Source of the DNA: a virus | Lineage: Duplodnaviria > Heunggongvirae > Uroviricota > Caudoviricetes | Length of the DNA: 9,888 bases | Strand: one strand, 5' to 3' | Virus record (IMG/VR): IMGVR_UViG_2529292908_000017 | Coordinates: 1-9,888 of that record | Part shown: in pieces, positions 1-9,888 of the stretch | Numbering within the stretch: the stretch's first letter is position 1 | How the letters are laid out: the number at the start of each line of letters is the position of its first letter | Notes under the pieces: model-generated | Databases searched by the model: none | What the model was told of the DNA's origin: nothing | Seen by the model: only the letters and a program-made list of their open reading frames with translations | Program-made: the position numbers and the translations under genes

Positions 1-1242
1 ATGGCGAGAAAAACACACCCATTAACCACAGTGCAGATCAAAGCAGCCAGACCAGCGCAAAAGGAGTACACCCTGCAGGACGGCGGAGGGCTTTTTCTCC
101 TGGTCAAACCGTCTGGATCAAAACTCTGGAGATTTTCCTACTACCGACCATCGGACAAAAAAAGAATATTGCTGAGTTTTGGATCGCTTGAAGATGTTTC
201 CCTGGCTGATGCCAGAAAACGCCGTAGCGAGTACAGGACGTTAATCAGTGCCGGAACTGACCCGCAGGACCACGAGAGGCAAAAAAGAGAGACAGAGGCC
301 CGAAGACAAGGGAACACGTTCGAAAATGTGGCGGCGGCATGGTACCAGGTGAAAATCAGCCAGAATCTGGCCCCCAACACGATTAAAGACATCTGGCGTT
401 CGCTGGATAAATATGTATTCCCGTTCATCGGCAACACGCCAATAGATACCCTCACCGCCCGAAGGTTCGTTGAAGTGCTTACCCCCATCAAGGAGCGCGG
501 CAACCTGGAAACACTCAAGCGGGTTTTACAGCGCGTTAATGAGGTAATGGATTACGCCGCCAACAGTGGGCTGATTGATGCCAATCCGGCTATGAATGTG
601 CGTAAGGCGTTTCCCTCACCTGTAAAAAAACATATGCCAACAATCCGCCCCGAACAGCTGCCGGAGCTTATGCAGGCTTTATCAGTATCGGCAACAGAAC
701 GGCAGACCAGATTACTGATTGAATGGCAGTTACTGACCGTAACCCGTCCCGCCGAAGCGTCATCAACGCGGTGGGATGAAATCAACCTGGACGCGAAGCA
801 ATGGACGATACCTGCCGGACGCATGAAGATGCGCAGGGATCACGTTATCCCGCTTTCCGGTCAGGCTATGGCGGTGCTGGAGGCCATGAAACCAATCAGC
901 CACCACCGCAATTACGTTTTCCCAAGTCTGAAAGACCCACAGCAGCCGATGAACAGCCAGACAGCTAACGCAGCATTGCGGCGTATGGGATTCGCTGGCG
1001 TGCTGGTGTCTCATGGATTACGCGCCATATTCAGCACAGCAGCGAACGAGGAAGGATTCGAGCCGGACGTAATAGAGGCGGCACTTGCCCACGTCGACAC
1101 CAACGAAGTTAGACGGGCATACAACCGGAGCAACTACATAGAAAAACGCATCGTGCTGATGCGCTGGTGGGGCGAATTTGTCGAGGCTGCGGCGACGGGC
1201 GTAACCCTCGCCAGTGGTAAAAGGGGTATCCGAGCCGTGTAG
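1..1242 (+). CDS. int: Tyrosine recombinase / integrase, P4-type (satellite / genomic-island family)
   Basis: 413-aa ORF starting at window base 1. N-terminal arm-type region (GGGLFLLVKPSGSKLWRFSYY) typical of P4-family integrases; C-terminal catalytic region with HGLRAIFST (H-x-x-R) and RAYNRSNY (tyrosine nucleophile region). Recognition by eye, no search. Confidence 0.9.
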   Translation: MARKTHPLTTVQIKAARPAQKEYTLQDGGGLFLLVKPSGSKLWRFSYYRPSDKKRILLSFGSLEDVSLADARKRRSEYRTLISAGTDPQDHERQKRETEARRQGNTFENVAAAWYQVKISQNLAPNTIKDIWRSLDKYVFPFIGNTPIDTLTARRFVEVLTPIKERGNLETLKRVLQRVNEVMDYAANSGLIDANPAMNVRKAFPSPVKKHMPTIRPEQLPELMQALSVSATERQTRLLIEWQLLTVTRPAEASSTRWDEINLDAKQWTIPAGRMKMRRDHVIPLSGQAMAVLEAMKPISHHRNYVFPSLKDPQQPMNSQTANAALRRMGFAGVLVSHGLRAIFSTAANEEGFEPDVIEAALAHVDTNEVRRAYNRSNYIEKRIVLMRWWGEFVEAAATGVTLASGKRGIRAV

Positions 1243-1319
1243 CTGTACAGAAAACCAGTAAAAACTACGAAAACCATGTAAAACCGTCGTATAATTGCAT
1301 CAAATTTAACGACAAGGCC

Positions 1320-1571
1320 GTGAAACATGAAACCGTTAAGATGCAAAAAAATATCAGATGCAATTGCGACGGGCTGCAACTGGCCCTGATGGTTCAGCAT
1401 GAATTTTGGTCAACCTACGATCCGGAGGACAGGACGACGGCCCCATCAAAAAAACAGGTAGTAGATTTTCTGGTATCCCGTGGCGCTTCCAGAAATCTGG
1501 CGGTAAGTATTGATAAGGTCGTACGTCCGGCATCTATGAAGATCGGAGGCAGGCCCAAAAAATGGCGGTAA
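1320..1571 (+). CDS. Hypothetical small protein (83 aa)
   Basis: ORF with AAGG about 10 nt upstream of the ATG, ending 10 nt before a strong intrinsic terminator. A TATAAT hexamer lies at about 1290-1295. No family recognised. Confidence 0.45.
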   Translation: MKHETVKMQKNIRCNCDGLQLALMVQHEFWSTYDPEDRTTAPSKKQVVDFLVSRGASRNLAVSIDKVVRPASMKIGGRPKKWR

Positions 1572-1580
1572 CAATCCTGG

Positions 1581-1606
1581 AAGCGGCAGAAATGCCGCTT
1601 TTTTTA
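1581..1606 (+). terminator. Rho-independent terminator
   Basis: Stem AGCGGCA / TGCCGCT (7 bp) with GAAA loop followed by a T6-7 run, immediately after the 1320..1571 ORF. Confidence 0.7.
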
Positions 1607-1629
1607 TAATTCCATTTCAAATCATCAAT

Positions 1630-1735
1630 ATAAAAAACGGTGTATACCGTTTAAAAACGGTGGGAACTGTTTTTACCCATATCCGATGATTTACCGTATT
1701 TGTCACCGGAATACACCGGATTCACAAGGTAAATC
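1630..1735 (+). promoter_or_regulatory. Putative promoter/operator region upstream of alpA
   Basis: 10-bp direct repeat AAAAACGGTG at 1633-1642 and 1653-1662; inverted half-sites ACGGT-N4-ACCGT at 1637-1650; direct repeat CACCGGA at 1704-1710 and 1714-1720; AAGG RBS at 1726-1729 before the ATG at 1739. Function inferred. Confidence 0.3.
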
Positions 1736-1738
1736 ACG

Positions 1739-1944
1739 ATGGAAGCAATCAGAAAAATTATCTTTCGCCAGGAAGTAAAAAAATTATCCACATCAAGGCA
1801 GACAGCACGCTGCAAAGCATGATCAACGCCGGAGAATTTCCGCAGGGTTTTCGCGTTGGTTTACGCCGTCGCGGATGGTATGAGGATGATGTGTTGGCCT
1901 GGCAGAAAGAACGCGAACAGGAAGCACGCGGAACGGCTGCTTAA
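1739..1944 (+). pseudogene. alpA: AlpA-family (prophage CP4-57-type) HTH regulator, apparently disrupted by a 1-nt frameshift
   Basis: Frame from ATG 1739 reads MEAIRKIIFRQEVKKLSTSRQTARCKA then stops (TGA 1820-1822). The -1 frame continues LQSMINAGEFPQGFRVGLRRRGWYEDDVLAWQKERE to TAA 1942-1944. Joined, they match the AlpA pattern (TG-x-SR-x-T-IY-x-hh-x-G-x-FP ... G-W-x-E-x-D-h-x-x-W). Length 206 nt is not a multiple of 3; shift localised to about 1803-1811. Confidence 0.6.
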
Positions 1945-2092
1945 CGGGTATCACAGATATGACAAACACGAAAAAAGCGGCCCCGATATGGAGCCGCCTT
2001 TCTGAACAATTAACCCGCTGCGCCTTATGTGTATGTGATCCCAAACATAAGCACGGGGATGATAGCCGCTATCAGGCTGGTGGGCAATGCAA

Positions 2093-2266
2093 TCAGTCTG
2101 GTTCAGTTCGTTGCCATACCTGCAATGAGCGCTTTTCCCTATACTCTTTAAGGAATTGCTCAAGGGCAAAAGCACATGGTGCGAATCTTTCTGATTCATG
2201 CTCTATCTTTCTGCGCCGTCTTTTCCGTGCCGGTGATAATGTTTTGGTCAATTCTTTATCGGTCAT
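2093..2266 (-). CDS. Hypothetical small basic protein (57 aa from second ATG; 62 aa from first)
   Basis: Minus-strand ORF MTDKELTKTLSPARKRRRRKIEHESERFAPCAFALEQFLKEYREKRSLQVWQRTEPD, with AGGA 7 nt upstream of the internal ATG (+ coordinates 2264-2266). Composition is protein-like, unlike the overlapping 186-aa + ORF. No homologue recognised. Confidence 0.3.
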   Translation of the reverse strand: MTDKELTKTLSPARKRRRRKIEHESERFAPCAFALEQFLKEYREKRSLQVWQRTEPD

Positions 2267-2692
2267 TGTGTTGTCCTGCATAGCAATACGCCGTAATACC
2301 TCACACCACGGCGCTGGTGATGGTTACTCCTGCTCTTTGGCCTTGCGCCGCTGGCGGCGTTTGATCTCACCTTTAACGGCAGTAACTATAAATTGCGCCT
2401 TGCTTTCACCTTCATCTAAATTTTTTCTAAGTCTGCAACAACATCATGCGGGAATCTGGCATTTAACTGTTGCGACTTATTATTTGTTGAACCTGTTGCC
2501 ATTACTGAATCCTCTCTAAGTTGGTGCGATTCAGTATACACAAAAAAAATTTCAGAGAAAGGCTTGAAGTGCGATTCACTTACTGATAGGTTAAAAACGA
2601 ATGGTGCGATGCACCAAACAACAACGCCCCGCAGTGGTGGCACACATGCAGGGCGTCTAACCACCAACGATAACGAGAGTATCGAGGTAGCT

Positions 2693-2896
2693 ATGAGAAA
2701 TCATACCACACACCCGCAAGGGCGGGACTCGCACGACCTGAATAAATACATCTGGCGTTTTATCGCCCTGAGCACGGCACAACCGCGCGTGATTACCATT
2801 GAGGCCACCAGCGAACAGGAAGCACGCCTGCAATCCCCGGCTGGCTGCGTGATGGTATTCGCTGCCCGTATTCGCCAGGGGTCACATCATGCGTAA
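2693..2896 (+). CDS. Small protein, paralogue A of a tandem pair; possibly Ash / Icd-like family (unverified)
   Basis: ATG 2693 preceded by GAGG (2684-2687). C-terminal motif YIWRF ... EATSEQEARLQSP ... FAARIRQGSHHA is repeated in the next gene, with synonymous third-position differences (CGT/CGC, CGC/CGT). The longer TTG start at 2564 in the ORF track has no credible RBS. Confidence 0.5.
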   Translation: MRNHTTHPQGRDSHDLNKYIWRFIALSTAQPRVITIEATSEQEARLQSPAGCVMVFAARIRQGSHHA

Positions 2897-3575
2897 AAAC
2901 CGCTTGCAAAAAATTATCACGGGGCTGTATGCTTCCCCCGTCGCCCACATGGCGACCGGGTTTAGCAGCCTGAATACATCTGGCGGACAGCCGCCCACAT
3001 CCGATAAGCGGTTTTTTTGTGTCCGTAAACCTACCCATACCCGCATTATGGCGGGGCGTAACGGGGGAGCCTTTGTGCTCGCTGGTTTCCAGATGACCAG
3101 TCTGCTAACCCTGTTACGTCTCGCCACCATGTTTAGCAGCGTAGTAGCGAGACTCCTTAAAATTCATCTGGGAGCCTTTCACATGGCTGTATTCGCACGC
3201 CCTTATTTTGTCTGGCGCTTTATGCAGTGCCTGACAGACAGTATTGCAATATTCACCGTTACCGCTGCCACTGAGCGCGAAGCACGTGCACAGCTGCCGC
3301 ACGCACATCTTATTTTTGTCGCCCGTATTCGCCAGGGGGGGGGAGTCATGCATAAAATACCCTTTGATGTTCTTGTTCATTCTGAAAACGCATTAATCCG
3401 CGCAAAGGAAATGGACGCATTACTACTTAAGTTAATTGATGTGCCGGAAAGTGGCGATGAATCTGATTCAATGATGTTTTCTGCCGTGCGTACGCTATTA
3501 ACGCCTGTTATTAATGAATTAAATACAGTGATGGCAATTCACGAGAATAATAAAGCGCAGCACAACGGAGAATAA
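2889..3575 (+). CDS. Composite ORF: N-terminal segment of unknown nature, then paralogue B (from internal ATG 3183 with GGAG RBS), read through a G9 tract into a 75-aa C-terminal segment
   Basis: Continuous 228-aa ORF; ATG 2889 overlaps the stop of the previous gene (ATGCGTAA). Residues from 3183 (MAVFARPYFVWRF ... TAATEREARAQLP ... FVARIRQGGG) parallel paralogue A. G9 tract at 3335-3343; with G10 the paralogue would end ...QGGGSHA* (compare A: ...QGSHHA*) and a separate ORF would start at ATG 3348. Confidence 0.4.
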   Translation: MRKNRLQKIITGLYASPVAHMATGFSSLNTSGGQPPTSDKRFFCVRKPTHTRIMAGRNGGAFVLAGFQMTSLLTLLRLATMFSSVVARLLKIHLGAFHMAVFARPYFVWRFMQCLTDSIAIFTVTAATEREARAQLPHAHLIFVARIRQGGGVMHKIPFDVLVHSENALIRAKEMDALLLKLIDVPESGDESDSMMFSAVRTLLTPVINELNTVMAIHENNKAQHNGE

Positions 3576-3580
3576 AAAAC

Positions 3581-3880
3581 ATGAAAAATAAAAATTCTGG
3601 CGTTACTGCCAGCGGCCCCGCTCGTCCTGAATTTATGAACGGCGATATTTACCGCGATAAATATGGCGGCATGGTAACGATTAAAGGCGTGGCAGAACGG
3701 CGCATCACCTACCGTCGTGAAGGCTACGAATATGATTGCGTGATGCCTGTTTATCAGTTTCGGCGTGATTTTTCTCTGGTACAGGCAGCGCCCCGCAGTA
3801 AACCAACCAGCAGGGAGAAAGCACGCGCCAATATTCAGGAAATAAAAAAGATGCTTAACGTATTCAGGGGTAAAAAATGA
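3581..3880 (+). CDS. Hypothetical protein (99 aa), translationally coupled to the primase
   Basis: ORF with GGAG upstream; its TGA stop (3878-3880) overlaps the primase ATG (3877-3879) as ATGA. Protein-like composition; family not recognised. Confidence 0.6.
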   Translation: MKNKNSGVTASGPARPEFMNGDIYRDKYGGMVTIKGVAERRITYRREGYEYDCVMPVYQFRRDFSLVQAAPRSKPTSREKARANIQEIKKMLNVFRGKK

Positions 3881-5625
3881 AACTGGCACCGAACGTAAAA
3901 AAACAGCCACGCGGAATAAAACACAAAGACACAGAGGTAATTATTTTCGCGGGTAGTGATGCCTGGTCGCACGCGAAACAATGGCAGGAGCAGGATGGCC
4001 CCGCATCCGGCGATAATGTGCCGCCTGTGTGGCTTGGGCCAAATCAGCTTGCCGAACTTGATGCACTGAAAATTGTTCCGGATGGGAAAAAGCGCGTAAG
4101 GCTGTACCAGGCCGGAGAACTGGATTTGGTGGAGACCAAAAAGATTGGTCAGAAGCTGGCGGCAGCAGATATTCAGGACGCAAATTTTTACCCCGAAGGA
4201 ATGCACGTCCAGAAGTGTGAAAACTGGCGGCGCTATCTGAATGCTGAGCGTGAAAATATTGCCGCAGGGCTTACCATGCCGGAGCAGAAAAATACGCAAC
4301 TGGCACAAATGGCAGACAGTGAGCGCGCGCAGCTGCTTGCCGAGCGCTTTGATGGCGTTTGTGTGCATCCTGAAAGTGAAATCGTTCACGTATGGCGCGG
4401 CGGGGTATGGTGTCCGGTCAGCACAATGGAGCTGAGCCGCGAAATGGTGGCGATCTATTCAGAGCACAGGGCCACTTTCAGCAAGCGCGTAATCAATAAC
4501 GCCGTGGAAGCGTTAAAAGTTATTGCCGAACCAATGGGCGAGCCGTCCGGCGATTTGCTGCCGTTCGCCAATGGTGCGCTTGACCTGAAAACGGGGGAAT
4601 TTTCCCCGCACACGCCGGAGAACTGGATCACCACGCACAACGGCATTGAGTACACGCCACCAGCACCAGGGGAGAACATCCGCGATAACGCGCCAAACTT
4701 TCATAAATGGCTTAAGCACGCAGCCGGAAAAGACCCGCGCAAGATGATGCGTATATGTGCCGCGCTGTACATGATTATGGCGAACCGGTACGACTGGCAG
4801 ATGTTTATTGAGGCCACCGGAGACGGCGGGAGCGGTAAAAGTACATTCACGCACATAGCCAGCCTTCTGGCAGGGAAACAGAACACGGTAAGCGCTGAAA
4901 TGACATCGCTTGATGATGCTGGTGGACGTGCGCAGGTTGTCGGGAGTCGTCTTATCGTCCTGGCTGACCAGCCGAAATATACAGGCGAAGGAACGGGCAT
5001 CAAGAAAATCACGGGCGGTGACCCCGTGGAAATTAACCCGAAATATGAAAAGCGTTTTACGGCGGTAATCAGGGCGGTGGTGCTGGCGACCAACAACAAC
5101 CCGATGATATTCACCGAACGGGCCGGAGGTGTGGCACGTCGTCGCGTGATTTTCCGTTTCGACAATATCGTCAGTGAGGCCGAAAAAGACAGGGAGCTAC
5201 CGGAAAAGATTGCGGCTGAAATCCCTGTGATTATCCGCCGATTACTGGCGAACTTTTCCGCCCCTGAAAAGGCACGGGCTTTACTCATTGAACAGCGTGA
5301 CGGTGATGAAGCACTGGCGATAAAGCAGCAAACGGATCCGGTTATTGAGTTTTGCCAGTTCCTGAATTTTCTGGAGGAAGCGCGCGGCCTGATGATGGGG
5401 GGCGGTGGCGATTCAGTGAAGTACACGACCAGGAACAGCCTTTACCGCGTCTATCTGGCGTTTATGGCATACGCAGGCAGGAGCAAACCGCTAAACGTAA
5501 ATGACTTTGGCAAGGCTATGAAGCCAGCCGCGAAAGTTTACGGACATGAATATATTACGCGGAAAGTTAAGGGAGTAACGCAGACTAACGCAATAACAAC
5601 AGACGATTGCGACGCGTTTTTATAA
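3877..5625 (+). CDS. Phage/plasmid primase-helicase, P4-family C-terminal domain / D5-like SF3 NTPase (satellite pri-rep type)
   Basis: 582-aa ORF with AGGGGT RBS. Walker A P-loop ATGDGGSGKST, followed by motifs typical of D5 / P4-alpha-type helicases (LIVLADQP Walker B-like, VVLATNN). Immediately followed by an iteron array. N-terminal ~300 aa not assigned. Confidence 0.88.
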   Translation: MKLAPNVKKQPRGIKHKDTEVIIFAGSDAWSHAKQWQEQDGPASGDNVPPVWLGPNQLAELDALKIVPDGKKRVRLYQAGELDLVETKKIGQKLAAADIQDANFYPEGMHVQKCENWRRYLNAERENIAAGLTMPEQKNTQLAQMADSERAQLLAERFDGVCVHPESEIVHVWRGGVWCPVSTMELSREMVAIYSEHRATFSKRVINNAVEALKVIAEPMGEPSGDLLPFANGALDLKTGEFSPHTPENWITTHNGIEYTPPAPGENIRDNAPNFHKWLKHAAGKDPRKMMRICAALYMIMANRYDWQMFIEATGDGGSGKSTFTHIASLLAGKQNTVSAEMTSLDDAGGRAQVVGSRLIVLADQPKYTGEGTGIKKITGGDPVEINPKYEKRFTAVIRAVVLATNNNPMIFTERAGGVARRRVIFRFDNIVSEAEKDRELPEKIAAEIPVIIRRLLANFSAPEKARALLIEQRDGDEALAIKQQTDPVIEFCQFLNFLEEARGLMMGGGGDSVKYTTRNSLYRVYLAFMAYAGRSKPLNVNDFGKAMKPAAKVYGHEYITRKVKGVTQTNAITTDDCDAFL

Positions 5626-5636
5626 TTTTTTGCAAT

Positions 5637-5865
5637 GTCTGTCTACCCTGTCTACCTGAGTAAAGAAAAATACATTTAATTCAGTATATTAACTTAGGTA
5701 GACAGCCTTTTTTCACTGTCTACCTACTATCTACCCTCTCTACCTGATTTTACCTGAATCAGACAGGGAGGTAGATACGGGGTAGATAGTGGATAAAAGC
5801 ACTCTACCCCGCTGAAAGCCGCGCCATTACTGGCATGAGAGCCAGTAAGGTAGATAAGGTAGACA
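5637..5865. repeat. Iteron array, putative replication origin
   Basis: About 11 copies of the heptamer GTCTACC / GGTAGA(C/T) in both orientations (e.g. 5641-5647, 5650-5656, 5697-5703, 5718-5724, 5770-5776, 5781-5787, 5849-5855, 5858-5864) around an AT-rich core (about 5657-5695), directly downstream of the primase-helicase gene. Confidence 0.65.
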
Positions 5866-5913
5866 AGGGGAGGCACAACTCAAAACTTTTTAAACGAGGG
5901 GGTAAAAATAAAA

Positions 5914-6171
5914 ATGCGCACATCAGGAAAACTTAATAATCAGAAGAAGCAGCATAACCGCGCCATTGACCTTACAGAGCACTGGCTGAGAGTGGCGATA
6001 AAAATCATCGACCGCAACACGGGGGAAGGATACGCGAAAGCACATCCCGACCTGATAAGCGCATTCATGACCACGGCGGCAGCAAACTTTGCCACGCTGA
6101 CAGAACGGGAGATTGCCGAAGCGGAACAGGTGACAACCATCAACGTTAAAACCGGAGAGCAGACAGCATGA
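5914..6171 (+). CDS. Hypothetical protein (85 aa), coupled to ssb
   Basis: ORF with GAGGGGG upstream; its stop overlaps the next ATG (ATGA at 6168-6171). No family recognised. Confidence 0.5.
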   Translation: MRTSGKLNNQKKQHNRAIDLTEHWLRVAIKIIDRNTGEGYAKAHPDLISAFMTTAAANFATLTEREIAEAEQVTTINVKTGEQTA

Positions 6172-6590
6172 CAGCACAGATAGCGGCTTACGGGCGGCTG
6201 GTGGCTGACCCGCAGTTAAAGACCACCAGCAAAGGGACACAAATGGCGATGGCGAGTATGGCGGTTCCCCTGCCATGCAGCCAGGCAGATGACGGAACGG
6301 CGACGATGTGGTTATCTGTCCTGGCGTTTGGCAGACAGGCCGACGCACTGGCAAAACACCACAAAGGCGAACTCCTGAGCGTGGCGGGTAATATGCAGGT
6401 GAGCCAGTGGACAGGCCAGAACGGCGAAACGCGGCAGGGCTGGCAGGTTATCGCAGACAGTGTAATCAGTGCCAGAACGGCGCGACCGGGCGGCAAAAAA
6501 GGTCAACAGGGGCAGGCTACTGACGCACTGAACAGGGCAAAACAACAGGCGGGAAATGATGATCCGTACGGGGATAACATACCGTTTTAA
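6168..6590 (+). CDS. ssb: Single-stranded DNA-binding protein (SSB-like OB fold with acidic C-terminal tip)
   Basis: 140 aa. N-terminal OB region aligns by eye with E. coli SSB (YGRLVADPQLK vs VGNLGQDPEVR; WLSVLAFGRQADALAKHHKGE vs [21 protein letters not shown]). Gly/Gln-rich linker and C-terminal DDPYGDNIPF resemble the SSB tail DDDIPF. Confidence 0.78.
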   Translation: MTAQIAAYGRLVADPQLKTTSKGTQMAMASMAVPLPCSQADDGTATMWLSVLAFGRQADALAKHHKGELLSVAGNMQVSQWTGQNGETRQGWQVIADSVISARTARPGGKKGQQGQATDALNRAKQQAGNDDPYGDNIPF

Positions 6591-6606
6591 GCAACGAGTA
6601 ACAGAG

Positions 6607-6628
6607 GCCGGAGCAATCCGGCTTTTAT
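6607..6628 (+). terminator. Rho-independent terminator after ssb
   Basis: Stem GCCGGA / TCCGGC with GCAA loop followed by TTTTAT. Confidence 0.65.
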
Positions 6629-6861
6629 CAGTTGAGTCCGTCACACTACGCAAAAAAAAGCCGGAATATTCCGACCCTTTCATCACCAAAGAGAATAATT
6701 TATGTCTTTGAACTTGTAACGCTGTACAGAATGACACGTAACGCCGGATAAATAAACGAAGATTGAAACTTTGCACACTATTGCATAGCAATGCATAAAG
6801 ATGCCAAACAAGGCAGATGATAAAATTAACGCGACACTTTTACTAAGTATTAAGAGGTTAT

Positions 6862-7902
6862 ATGAGTGATTTATATTCGCCAGCCATGTTAATACAGGTT
6901 GTTAATGCCGAAGATATTCAATGGCAGATTAATTCTTTATTTATAAACCTGTTTTTTAAGCGAGTCGTTACATTTGAGACGCGGGATATTGCGCTTGATA
7001 TTATTGACGATCCAGACATCCCGATGGCTGCATTTTGTTCCCCTATGGTTGGTAGTAAAGTCTCACGCGATGAAGGCTACGAATCAAAAGTAATTCGCCC
7101 TGGCTATATGAAGCCAAAAAGTAGTATCGACCCAAATAAAATAGCCGTTCGTCAACCAGGCGTATCACCTGAACAATTCAATGCATATTCATCACGCAGT
7201 TTCAAAATAAAGCGAGCGTTAGTAAGACAAGCGCAGGCAATTCGTGCGCGTATTGAGTGGCTTGCTGTTCAGGCGGTTACAACGGGGAAAAATATCATTG
7301 AAGGCGATGGAATTGAACGTTATGAACTGGACTGGAATATAAAACCACAAAATATTATCACGCAGTCCGGCGGCACGGAGTGGAGCGGTAGAGATTTATC
7401 AACATTTGATCCAAACGATGACATCGAAGAGTACGCAGAAATCAGCGAAGGTACTACAAATATCATCGTAATGGGCCGCAACGTATGGAAAAAATACCGC
7501 GCCTTTAAAGCAGTAAAAGATTGCCTTGATACTCGACGGGGATCTAATTCCATTCTTGAAACGGCCCTGAAAAATCTTGGGGATTCTGTAAGCTTCAAGG
7601 GTTACGTTGGCGATGTTGCTATTGTGGTATATAGCGGACGTTATACCGACGAGGACGGCAAAGAAAAATATTTCCTTGATCCTGATTTGATGGTGCTTGG
7701 CAACACATCATTACAGGGCATCGTTGCCTACGGTGGCATTCAGGATCCTGAGTTAATCAGAATGGGGCTGACTAAAGCCGAACTTGCGCCGAAAAATTAC
7801 ATCGTACCAGGTGATCCGGCTATTGAATATGTGCAGACGCACAGCGCACCGCAACCAATACCGGCCCGCATCAATCGTTTTGTTACCGTTCGCATTGGTT
7901 AA
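6862..7902 (+). CDS. Major capsid protein, phage lambda gpE family
   Basis: 346 aa with AAGAGG RBS. Long colinear matches to remembered lambda gpE: NIITQSGGTEWSGRDLSTFDPNDDIEEYA (lambda NITQSGGTEWSKRDKSTYDPTDDIEAYA); FKAVKDCLDTRRGSNSILETALKNLGDSVSFKGYVGDVAIVVYSGRY ... MVLGNT (lambda FKAVKEKLDTRRGSNSELETAVKDLGKAVSYKGMYGDVAIVVYSGQY ... MVLGNT). Confidence 0.9.
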   Translation: MSDLYSPAMLIQVVNAEDIQWQINSLFINLFFKRVVTFETRDIALDIIDDPDIPMAAFCSPMVGSKVSRDEGYESKVIRPGYMKPKSSIDPNKIAVRQPGVSPEQFNAYSSRSFKIKRALVRQAQAIRARIEWLAVQAVTTGKNIIEGDGIERYELDWNIKPQNIITQSGGTEWSGRDLSTFDPNDDIEEYAEISEGTTNIIVMGRNVWKKYRAFKAVKDCLDTRRGSNSILETALKNLGDSVSFKGYVGDVAIVVYSGRYTDEDGKEKYFLDPDLMVLGNTSLQGIVAYGGIQDPELIRMGLTKAELAPKNYIVPGDPAIEYVQTHSAPQPIPARINRFVTVRIG

Positions 7903-7911
7903 GGGGGAGCA

Positions 7912-8253
7912 ATGGCTACTCATTACACTGAACTCATGGCTGGCACTGAAGCACTGGTTACTACGTTGGGGATATTTTCAGCTAATAAAGGGGTAATTCC
8001 TGCATTTACGCCACTGATGCAAGAAGATGCAACTGGTGCACTGGTGGTATGGGATGGAACGAGCGCAGGCAAAGCTGTTTATGTTTCCGCTGTACAAATC
8101 GATACAGCGACAAAAACGCAGGCTCAGGTTTATAAAACCGGCGTCTTAAATGTTGATGCTCTGAACTGGCCTGAGTCTGTAACACAACTATCAGCAAAAG
8201 TTGCTGCGTTTGTTGGCTCAGGTATTTCTGTTCAGCCGCTGGCACGTGTGTGA
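7912..8253 (+). CDS. Head decoration protein, phage lambda gpD family
   Basis: 113 aa with GGGGGAG RBS. Matches remembered gpD: TPLMQEDATGALVVWDGTSAGKAV (lambda [24 protein letters not shown]), YKTGVLNVDALNWPE (YKSGTFRYEDVLWPE), AAFVGSGISV (TAFAGTAISIV). Confidence 0.85.
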   Translation: MATHYTELMAGTEALVTTLGIFSANKGVIPAFTPLMQEDATGALVVWDGTSAGKAVYVSAVQIDTATKTQAQVYKTGVLNVDALNWPESVTQLSAKVAAFVGSGISVQPLARV

Positions 8254-8262
8254 GGTACGAGA

Positions 8263-8607
8263 ATGATTGAAAGAGATAGTCAGCTACGAGAGCTATTAGA
8301 TATCGATGACAAAATGAGTTTAAGCGAGCGCCTTGTTGATATGGATCAGGTAGTGGAGCTTACAACCCTTAGCCGTCGCACATTGCTAAACCTTGAGGCT
8401 CGCGGAGAGTTCCCCGAACGCGTACAGGTTACGAAAGGGCGCAAGGCATGGTATTTAAGCGAGGTTGTTGCGTGGATTAACAACATTCCGCGCGCATCAA
8501 ATTATTGCCTTGTTCCCACCCCCGAAAAACCTGATGCGGCGTTATGCCTCAAGATTGAACGCGCCAGGCGTAATGCCCTGAAAGGACGCAATAAGTTGAT
8601 TGGTTGA
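8263..8607 (+). CDS. AlpA/MerR-like helix-turn-helix DNA-binding protein (114 aa)
   Basis: GAGG RBS. Central segment VVELTTLSRRTLLNLEARGEFPERVQVTKGRKAWYLSEVVAWI fits the AlpA / excisionase-type HTH pattern, with N- and C-terminal extensions. Lies between the decoration gene and cos. Confidence 0.65.
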   Translation: MIERDSQLRELLDIDDKMSLSERLVDMDQVVELTTLSRRTLLNLEARGEFPERVQVTKGRKAWYLSEVVAWINNIPRASNYCLVPTPEKPDAALCLKIERARRNALKGRNKLIG

Positions 8608-8631
8608 TGAAATTAGGGCCCGTTCTGGCTG

Positions 8632-8830
8632 GCGGGTCCTTTCCGGCGATCCGGCAGGCTACGGGGCGGCGACCTCGCGGTTTTTCGCTATTTATGAGCC
8701 TTTTCAGGGGGGTGGTGGTGGTTTTGTTGTTTGATCTATCTTTATGAATGAAAAGGGAAAGATGCAAGCAATACACCAACCTGAAGCAGTAATTAAGTTG
8801 GTGTATTAATGAAATCTCATCTGATGAACA
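8632..8830 (+). other. cos site 1 (+ orientation): lambda-like cosQ/cosN (cosN 8664-8675, GGGCGGCGACCT) followed by a divergent cosB-like region up to the terS start
   Basis: GCGGGTCCTTTCCGGCGATCCGGCAGGCTACG-GGGCGGCGACCT-CGCGGTTTTTCGCTATTTATGA is near-identical to the remembered lambda cos junction. Downstream lacks lambda R-site-like GAAACGACA elements but has an 11-bp perfect inverted repeat (8770-8780 / 8797-8807). Confidence 0.75.
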
Positions 8831-8837
8831 AAAAAAC

Positions 8838-9350
8838 ATGGCGAAAAGCTGCCGTGTAAGTGCGACAGCGTTCGACAAGTGGGGAGTAACTCCCGTTGAG
8901 CGTAAAGGCCGTGAGGCGTTTTATGATGTTGCCAGCGTGATAGAAAATAGGGTTAACAATGCAATTAGCCAGCTTATAAACGACAAAGGCGAGATTGACG
9001 ATGATGAACTTTTACGAGTCAGGATCAGATTACTGACAGCACAGGCAGAGGCGCAGGAACTTAAAAACGATCGCGATCGCGGTGACGTGATTGATACTGA
9101 GTTTTGCCTGTACGCGCTTTCAAAGCTGGCGAGTCAGATTTCATCAATCATGGACAGCCTCCCGCTTACTATGCAAAGGAGCTTCCCACAGATTACCCCC
9201 GCCATGCTGGATAGGCTTAAAAGGGAAGTGGTTAAAGCCTGTAATGCCAGTGCCAGAGTTGCCGACAACCTCCCACAGATACTGGCTGATTACTTGAAAG
9301 AAACAACCGGAAACGTACCGGAAAAGTTGCTACAGAAGAAAGGCGAGTAA
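8838..9350 (+). CDS. Terminase small subunit, lambda Nu1 family, with divergent N-terminal DNA-binding region
   Basis: 170 aa. C-terminal two-thirds matches remembered Nu1: LTAQAEAQELKNDRDRGDVIDTEFCLYALSKLASQISSIMDSLPLTMQRSFPQ (lambda LTRAQADAQELKNARDSAEVVETAFCTFVLSRIAGEIASILDGLPLSVQRRFPE). N-terminal ~45 aa only loosely similar. An upstream ATG at 8824 (MNKKTW...) is out of frame by 1 nt across an A7 tract. Confidence 0.85.
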   Translation: MAKSCRVSATAFDKWGVTPVERKGREAFYDVASVIENRVNNAISQLINDKGEIDDDELLRVRIRLLTAQAEAQELKNDRDRGDVIDTEFCLYALSKLASQISSIMDSLPLTMQRSFPQITPAMLDRLKREVVKACNASARVADNLPQILADYLKETTGNVPEKLLQKKGE

Positions 9351-9369
9351 CAGACGCGCAATTATTGAA

Positions 9370-9580
9370 CAAAACTGAGAAACGACATGAAAGCGTCATA
9401 AATCGCCATTTTAGATGATTACCGTGTCGTTTCTTTTTATTGTGTATCTATTTAAAAACAAATAGTTATGTTCGAGAAGTACCGACATGCTTTTTCCAGA
9501 AAATTTTTCATAAACAGATAAAAACCGCGAGGTCGCCGCCCCGTAACGGGTCCATAATTCCAGGAAGGACCCGACGACAC
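9370..9580 (-). other. cos site 2 (inverted): cosN at 9530-9541 with a lambda-like cosB (R3 / IHF-I1 / R2 / R1-like elements) on the terS-proximal side
   Basis: The reverse complement reads ...CCCGTTACG-GGGCGGCGACCT-CGCGGTTTTTATCTGTTTATGAAAAATTTTCTGG ... CGAACATAACTATTTGTTTTTAAATAGATAC ... AAAGAAACGACACGG ... CATGTCGTTTCTCAG, paralleling the remembered lambda left end (cosN, I1 IHF site CGTCATAACTTAATGTTTTTATTTAAAATACC, R2 GGAAACGACAGG, R1 CTGTCGTTTCC). No terminase gene follows in this orientation. Confidence 0.7.
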
Positions 9581-9606
9581 CAGACAATCAGAACGATGGG
9601 TGCACA

Positions 9607-9888
9607 ATGACAGAAGCCGAAATACTGGGATTAATCCGCCGTGCTGGTGGAATCAGCCAGCAGACTGACGAACAGGCCACGCAGCCGGACAGCGTGACAG
9701 CCGAAAATTATGCGCGTGTTGTTGCTGAGGTGATGCGCCGTGATGGTATCCAGCTTAATGATGTGGATATGCGCAACATACGGATCCGCGTTCTTGAAAT
9801 GCTGGCCTACCGTCGCCGCGTGCAGACGTACAGGGAAAAAGCAAAAATTACGTACCACTGGAAGAAGCCGGAGCGGTTACGGCGGTAA
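9607..9888 (+). CDS. Hypothetical protein (93 aa)
   Basis: Complete ORF ending at the last base of the window (TAA 9886-9888). Weak RBS. No family recognised; Arg-rich C-terminus. Confidence 0.45.
   Translation: MTEAEILGLIRRAGGISQQTDEQATQPDSVTAENYARVVAEVMRRDGIQLNDVDMRNIRIRVLEMLAYRRRVQTYREKAKITYHWKKPERLRR

Follow-up and report, generated by a model that had tools for sequence, protein, structure and literature searches.

Genes of the satellite at the tRNA-Pro site

We consider a stretch of DNA of 9,888 nucleotides, called the window in the following, which covers positions 1 to 9,888 of the IMG/VR virus record IMGVR_UViG_2529292908_000017 and is an exact slice of AIFX01000059.1 of the draft assembly GCA_000249635.2. 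The genes described here all lie on the + strand. The first one (1-1242) encodes a tyrosine integrase of 413 aa (WP_000101718.1) having the Pfam domains Arm-DNA-bind_3, Phage_int_M and Phage_integrase, and in complete genomes this integrase adjoins tRNA-Pro. It is followed, with only a small hypothetical ORF in between, by the gene of an AlpA-like helix-turn-helix (HTH) regulator (1739-1944), which is frameshifted as assembled and is the main subject of this work. Downstream of alpA there are a DUF4222 gene, a D5_N/DUF5906 primase gene (3877-5625), an SSB gene, a lambda gpE-like capsid gene, a gpD-like decoration gene and a gene of a Nu1-like small terminase, which has 170 aa as assembled.

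It is noted that the window also contains a second AlpA-family gene (8263-8607, 114 aa), which lies between the decoration-protein and small terminase genes in the same orientation and scores above the first one, with 32.4 bits to PF05930 and an E value of 1e-37 to PHROG 2790. In a published PICI with two alpA genes, the second AlpA is dispensable for the island cycle and acts as an excisionase-like protein for the helper phage (PMC11773190).

In complete genomes as in the source contig, the element is located between tRNA-Pro/yejM and yejO. Its ends are marked by imperfect direct repeats of 32 nt that are 81% identical, lying at 1885-1916 and 12572-12603 of locus L005, i.e. 10,687 bp apart and outside the window on both sides, with the att-like core CTCTCGTGCCGACCAAA that equals the 3' end of tRNA-Pro. 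Just inside each island end there is another pair of repeats, of 26 nt and reading TTTTAGTTATACGTTT[A/G]GTTATACGG (L005 2037-2062 and 12494-12519), which could be candidate arm-type integrase or AlpA binding sites.

Judged by its layout, the 10.7-kb element is a Gram-negative PICI-type phage satellite: its length falls within 10-15 kb, it has att repeats at a tRNA and the gene order int-alpA-primase, and it carries few packaging or capsid genes and no tail or lysis module. The cf-PICIs described in the literature are about 15 kb long and possess genes for capsid, protease, portal, head-tail connectors, HNH, TerS and TerL. The gene calls of the 10.7-kb island include neither a portal nor a protease nor a large terminase, its only genes of this kind being those of capsid E, decoration D and the Nu1-like TerS, and the island thus falls outside the cf-PICI definition. 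We also considered a link to the cf-PICI EcCIEDL933 by way of an O157:H7 genome, and this was dropped: the island at this site in that genome is a PICI of about 9.7 kb and not the 15.4-kb cf-PICI, so that it provides no direct experimental link to the alpA studied here.

No identical island was found among complete E. coli genomes, where the best match covers 83% of the window at 93% identity. In hundreds of E. coli genomes the int-alpA module (positions 1-2000 of the window) is kept at 99-100% identity, and the modules past position 2000 are swapped, with a P4-type primase or a RepA helicase, a Nu1 or a Terminase_2 small terminase, and a gpE-type or an HK97-type capsid. The satellites at the tRNA-Pro site are strongly mosaic.

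The split of alpA and the position of the frameshift

As the earlier note had stated, alpA is split by a single-nucleotide frameshift in the assembled sequence, where it spans 206 nt and is covered by two overlapping ORFs in different frames. The upstream ORF (1739-1822) begins at the ATG at 1739 and stops at the TGA at 1820-1822, giving a product of 27 aa, MEAIRKIIFRQEVKKLSTSRQTARCKA, while the downstream ORF (1819-1944), which is in the -1 frame, begins at the ATG at 1819 and gives a product of 41 aa, MINAGEFPQGFRVGLRRRGWYEDDVLAWQKEREQEARGTAA, which is the gene call in the source contig. The two ORFs overlap in the ATGA at 1819-1822, also as reported before. Because the second frame is without a stop from 1741 to 1944, the boundaries of the two ORFs cannot place the frameshift, and its position has to be read from the alignment with intact alleles.

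Over 261 aligned bases, the window differs from the intact alleles in a single place, the A run that follows T1776, which has seven A's here (A7, 1777-1783) and eight A's (A8) there; the same difference is seen against loci L006, L007 and L008. The segment 1784-1944 is base-for-base the same as in the intact alleles, so that the lone gap column lies in the A run and the frameshift sits in a homopolymer. The earlier note had taken the shift to lie near 1803-1811, at GCACGC, and explicitly not in a homopolymer; both statements prove to be mistaken, the GCACGC sequence being unaltered and its choice having been guessed from the likeness of the proteins. A single-base indel at that site had been suggested by nothing else than the ORF boundaries, which leave the site unconstrained, and with the alignment at hand we discard it entirely. 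Note that when the two ORFs are joined at that site (…KKLSTSRQ|STLQ…) the product scores 20.4 bits against the Pfam AlpA model, yet the alignment with the intact alleles shows that this join is wrong.

With A8 the gene is 207 nt long and encodes one AlpA-like HTH protein of 68 aa (WP_000387478.1), whose product is MEAIRKIIFRQEVKKIIHIKADSTLQSMINAGEFPQGFRVGLRRRGWYEDDVLAWQKEREQEARGTAA, written also as MEAIRKIIFRQEVKKIIHIKADSTLQSMINAGEFPQG…TAA; the comparison with intact alleles, which the earlier note had proposed, shows one 68-aa ORF. With 541 nt around alpA as the query, matches are obtained in 838 complete E. coli genomes, and the top ones are 99.8% identical and one base longer. FDAARGOS_946 and Nissle 1917 have alpA as a CDS of 207 nt encoding WP_000387478.1, annotated as 'helix-turn-helix transcriptional regulator'. 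Positions 1777-1783 encode the end of Val13 and then Lys14-Lys15, and in the intact alleles the run also supplies the first base of Ile16. It follows for the two fragments that the previous description of an N-terminal and a C-terminal half in two frames holds in that the frames differ, but the upstream ORF is authentic AlpA for its first 15 residues only and is out of frame in the remainder. The ATG at 1819 is simply the codon of Met28 within the intact protein, and the overlap in ATGA is thus a coincidence.

The identification of the gene as AlpA-like is retained. The repaired protein of 68 aa matches PHROG 66 with an E value of 5.5e-7 and PHROG 2790 with an E value of 3e-6, both of which are described as 'excisionase and transcriptional regulator', and NCBI and UniRef list a protein identical to the intact one as 'AlpA family phage regulatory protein'. 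Its match to PF05930 (Phage_AlpA) has an E value of 0.0035 and covers model positions 4-51 of 51, with 17.6 bits, below the gathering threshold of 21; the alignment with the PDB AlpA-family chain 8c3t_A is weak (E 0.48), and a search of NCBIfam gave no match. In published PICIs, the alpA gene located directly 3' of int encodes the helper-induced master regulator, which is needed for induction, excision and transfer. By analogy with these islands, the intact AlpA-like protein would be the master activator of the present island, induced by the helper phage.

Origin of the seven-A run

An exact protein match of the primase led to the source assembly and to two further assemblies that carry the island: GCA_012373615.2 (locus L006) and the Logan assembly of SRR9913975 (locus L007). 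Both contain the same 10.7-kb island as the source, with identical primase, and there is no difference between the two over 13.7 kb. These are independent assemblies of the same island, though the strain may differ from that of the source. Over this length the source departs from both in six places, all of which are deletions of one base in a homopolymer, with no substitution. The source shows contractions of runs of 6 to 9 A's or T's and no expansion.

Two of the six contractions lie beyond the window, one upstream of int (T6 in the sister assemblies, T5 in the source) and one to the right of the window (T7 and T6, respectively). The other four lie within it, on the + strand. The first is that in alpA at 1777-1783 (A8 in the sisters, A7 in the source). 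The second, at 2421-2426 (T7 and T6), splits an ORF of 312 aa that starts at 1959 and is present intact at 4082-5020 in L006. The third, at 6652-6659 (A9 and A8), falls in the spacer between the SSB gene and the capsid gene. The fourth, at 8830-8836 (A8 and A7), costs the gene of the Nu1-like small terminase its first 10 codons; in the sisters this protein has 180 aa. Of the four contractions inside the window, three thus interrupt or shorten an ORF, and adding the lost bases back mends all three ORFs together, giving an alpA product of 68 aa, the 312-aa ORF and the small terminase of 180 aa.

The loss becomes more frequent as the run grows: none of the 217 runs of 4-5 bases is contracted, compared with 1 of the 20 runs of 6, 2 of the 10 runs of 7, 2 of the 3 runs of 8 and 1 of the 2 runs of 9. 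In the chromosomal flank, in the yejK-yejL spacer, the source also has A7 in place of A8, relative to four other strains. Most likely, then, judging from these comparisons, at least seven homopolymer undercalls have occurred within 20 kb of the source contig. A loss of homopolymer bases that depends on run length, goes one way and is not accompanied by substitutions is the signature of undercalling rather than of mutation, and the loss pattern of the source would accordingly reflect the sequencing chemistry. A real mutator history is expected to leave substitutions and some expansions too. With none of either, we rejected a mismatch-repair mutator as the origin of the six contractions.

On this evidence, which is strong but indirect, we consider it very probable that the frameshift in alpA is an error of base calling or assembly and not a biological inactivation. 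In this reading, one A would have been lost from the A8 homopolymer at 1777-1783 in the draft GCA_000249635.2, and the real gene would most likely be an ordinary, intact gene of a 68-aa AlpA-like regulator, located 3' of the integrase gene in a PICI-type satellite of 10.7 kb. The A8 of the sister assemblies together with the homopolymer losses of the source makes it unlikely that the excision activator is inactivated in this strain, which the earlier note had put forward in case the frameshift was real. That note had also held that its claim would fall if an extra base were seen to restore one continuous ORF of about 68 aa. The extra A is present in both of the independent assemblies of this island, and by proxy this refutes the claim.

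Alternatively, the A7 could be a genuine mutation, in which slipped-strand synthesis contracted A8 to A7, alpA became a pseudogene in this strain and the satellite can no longer be induced by a helper phage. That such a contraction can occur is seen from other genomes. Among complete E. coli genomes with this allele, 181 have A8, 4 have A7 and none has A9. The four with A7 are FWSEC0001 (O26:H11), EH2252, MBT-5 and 05_3471 (loci L003, L004, L066 and L067, locus coordinates 9000-9205), and PGAP annotates alpA as 'frameshifted' in all of them. All four also have the YejM allele WP_000256205.1 and a run of eight G's (G8) in a small island ORF, whereas the O26 genomes with A8, namely 11368, RM10386 and RM8426, have YejM WP_000256200.1 and nine G's (G9). 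As A7 co-segregates with an amino-acid allele of yejM and with the change from G9 to G8, inheritance is indicated rather than error. The four genomes look like one O26:H11-type sublineage, and the shared markers indicate that A7 is in this sublineage a genuine, inherited pseudogene allele of alpA, from which it is predicted that its tRNA-Pro satellite is no longer inducible by helper phages. Several recent drafts whose islands have other backbones show the contraction as well, and stretches of seven A's, which E. coli genes contain less often than expected, are known indel hot spots (PMC4066793).

A genuine A7 allele in other genomes means that a real contraction in this strain is possible in principle, but several data oppose it for the window. 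Here A7 is accompanied by five more contractions in 13.7 kb and by a seventh in the flank, and there are none of the substitutions and expansions that are expected of real mutation, even in a mismatch-repair-deficient mutator. Moreover, the frequency of A7 in the population is only about 2% (4 versus 181 complete E. coli genomes). We thus regard a genuine A8-to-A7 mutation in this strain as improbable.

Pattern scans gave A8 in 19 of 19 metagenome contigs and in 17 of 17 IMG/VR contigs with this allele, i.e. in 36 of 36 together. A locus search of genome contigs with the 68-aa protein returned no match. A gene call for the 41-aa fragment is present on 24 or more other contigs, compared with 1000 or more for the intact protein, and most of the former that were inspected have A7, recent drafts included. 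A diverged allele family, GTAAAAAAACTT, has A7 followed by C (Val-Lys-Lys-Leu) and is in frame (loci L023, L025-L027, L054, L055, L064 and L065), so that the length of eight A's is itself not conserved; one IMG/VR copy of this family (L046 1763-1798, IMGVR_UViG_2534682157_000021) has A6 followed by C, which puts it out of frame at this tract. For a phase-variable contingency locus two-way variation in length would be looked for, and with 4 A7, 181 A8 and no A9 among the complete genomes such variation was not seen. The alpA tract is, from these lengths, a modest indel hot spot and not a two-way phase-variable switch, and the reported scarcity of seven-A runs in E. coli genes agrees with a hot spot (PMC4066793).

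It remains to consider how a real A7 run would be decoded. The run forms the slippery heptamer A_AAA_AAA at 1777-1783, in phase with the ATG at 1739. The zero frame reads GT[A AAA AAA]TTA, and after a -1 slip of the ribosome the reading continues with ATT ATC CAC, giving …EVKKIIHIKA…, which equals the intact protein; from the sequence, an extra A added by RNA polymerase slippage on A7 would also restore the exact wild-type protein. Either -1 ribosomal frameshifting or transcriptional slippage could thus in principle decode the A7 gene into the 68-aa wild type, a point of note for the lineage in which A7 is genuine. For one IS cluster, -1 frameshifting on A_AAA_AAA has been proven, and stretches of seven A's have been tied to transcriptional slippage (PMC4066793).

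The surroundings of the heptamer offer little to promote a shift. No downstream RNA structure is present, the segment 1784-1850 folding with an MFE of -11.6 kcal/mol (z = 0.02 versus shuffles). In dnaX, the SD spacing that stimulates -1 shifts is about 10-14 nt upstream. Here a single nucleotide separates the heptamer from the sole SD-like element, AGGAAG (1770-1775), on its 5' side. With no downstream structure and this unfavourable spacing, programmed frameshifting as a designed mechanism in alpA was rejected. Furthermore, the two-frame arrangement is not conserved, as the counts of A8 and A7 given above for the complete genomes and for the metagenome and IMG/VR contigs show, and the A7 of the window is itself probably not real. 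A recoded A7 gene in this island is, consequently, extremely unlikely.

A broader proposal would be that the A8 tract is a mutational weak point that recurrently and heritably switches the satellite off, for which the O26:H11-type A7 sublineage would be the example, with A7 remaining leaky by slippage of the ribosome (-1) or of RNA polymerase. If this were true, a leaky A7 would mean a low-level, tunable inducibility instead of a dead island, and for the window it would require A7 to be real; we consider this proposal very doubtful. The undercall in the draft assembly thus stays by far our preferred explanation, and with it the frameshift in alpA becomes a matter of quality control, not to be taken as lost mobility of the island. 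It is also expected that in the same assembly spurious frameshifts occur at other runs of at least six A's or T's, as three genes are hit in this window.

Comparison with known systems

The intact gene resembles alpA of EcCICFT073, EcCIEDL933 and EcCIMP1 in that it encodes a small (68 aa) HTH protein of the AlpA/Xis type and lies directly downstream of a co-oriented integrase gene. As in Gram-negative PICIs, alpA here precedes Icd-like, DUF4222 and primase genes. The likeness to the studied PICI AlpAs is one of gene type and position, with PF05930 at 17.6 versus 21 bits.

The O26:H11-type islands with A7 share with the window the contraction from A8 to A7, an identical int-alpA module and the tRNA-Pro site, and differ from it in having a RepA helicase, a Terminase_2-type small terminase and an HK97-type capsid gene. 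With the programmed -1 sites on A_AAA_AAR, as in dnaX and IS elements, alpA has in common the in-phase A_AAA_AAA and a -1 product that is the wild-type protein; by contrast, it lacks the stimulatory structure, the well-spaced SD and the conserved shifted arrangement of those sites.

The window may also be compared with the homopolymer undercalls of draft assemblies, in which PGAP marks genes as 'frameshifted'. Here, as there, single bases are lost from runs of 6 to 9, more often from the longer runs and without accompanying substitutions, and several ORFs are broken that other assemblies of the same DNA keep intact.
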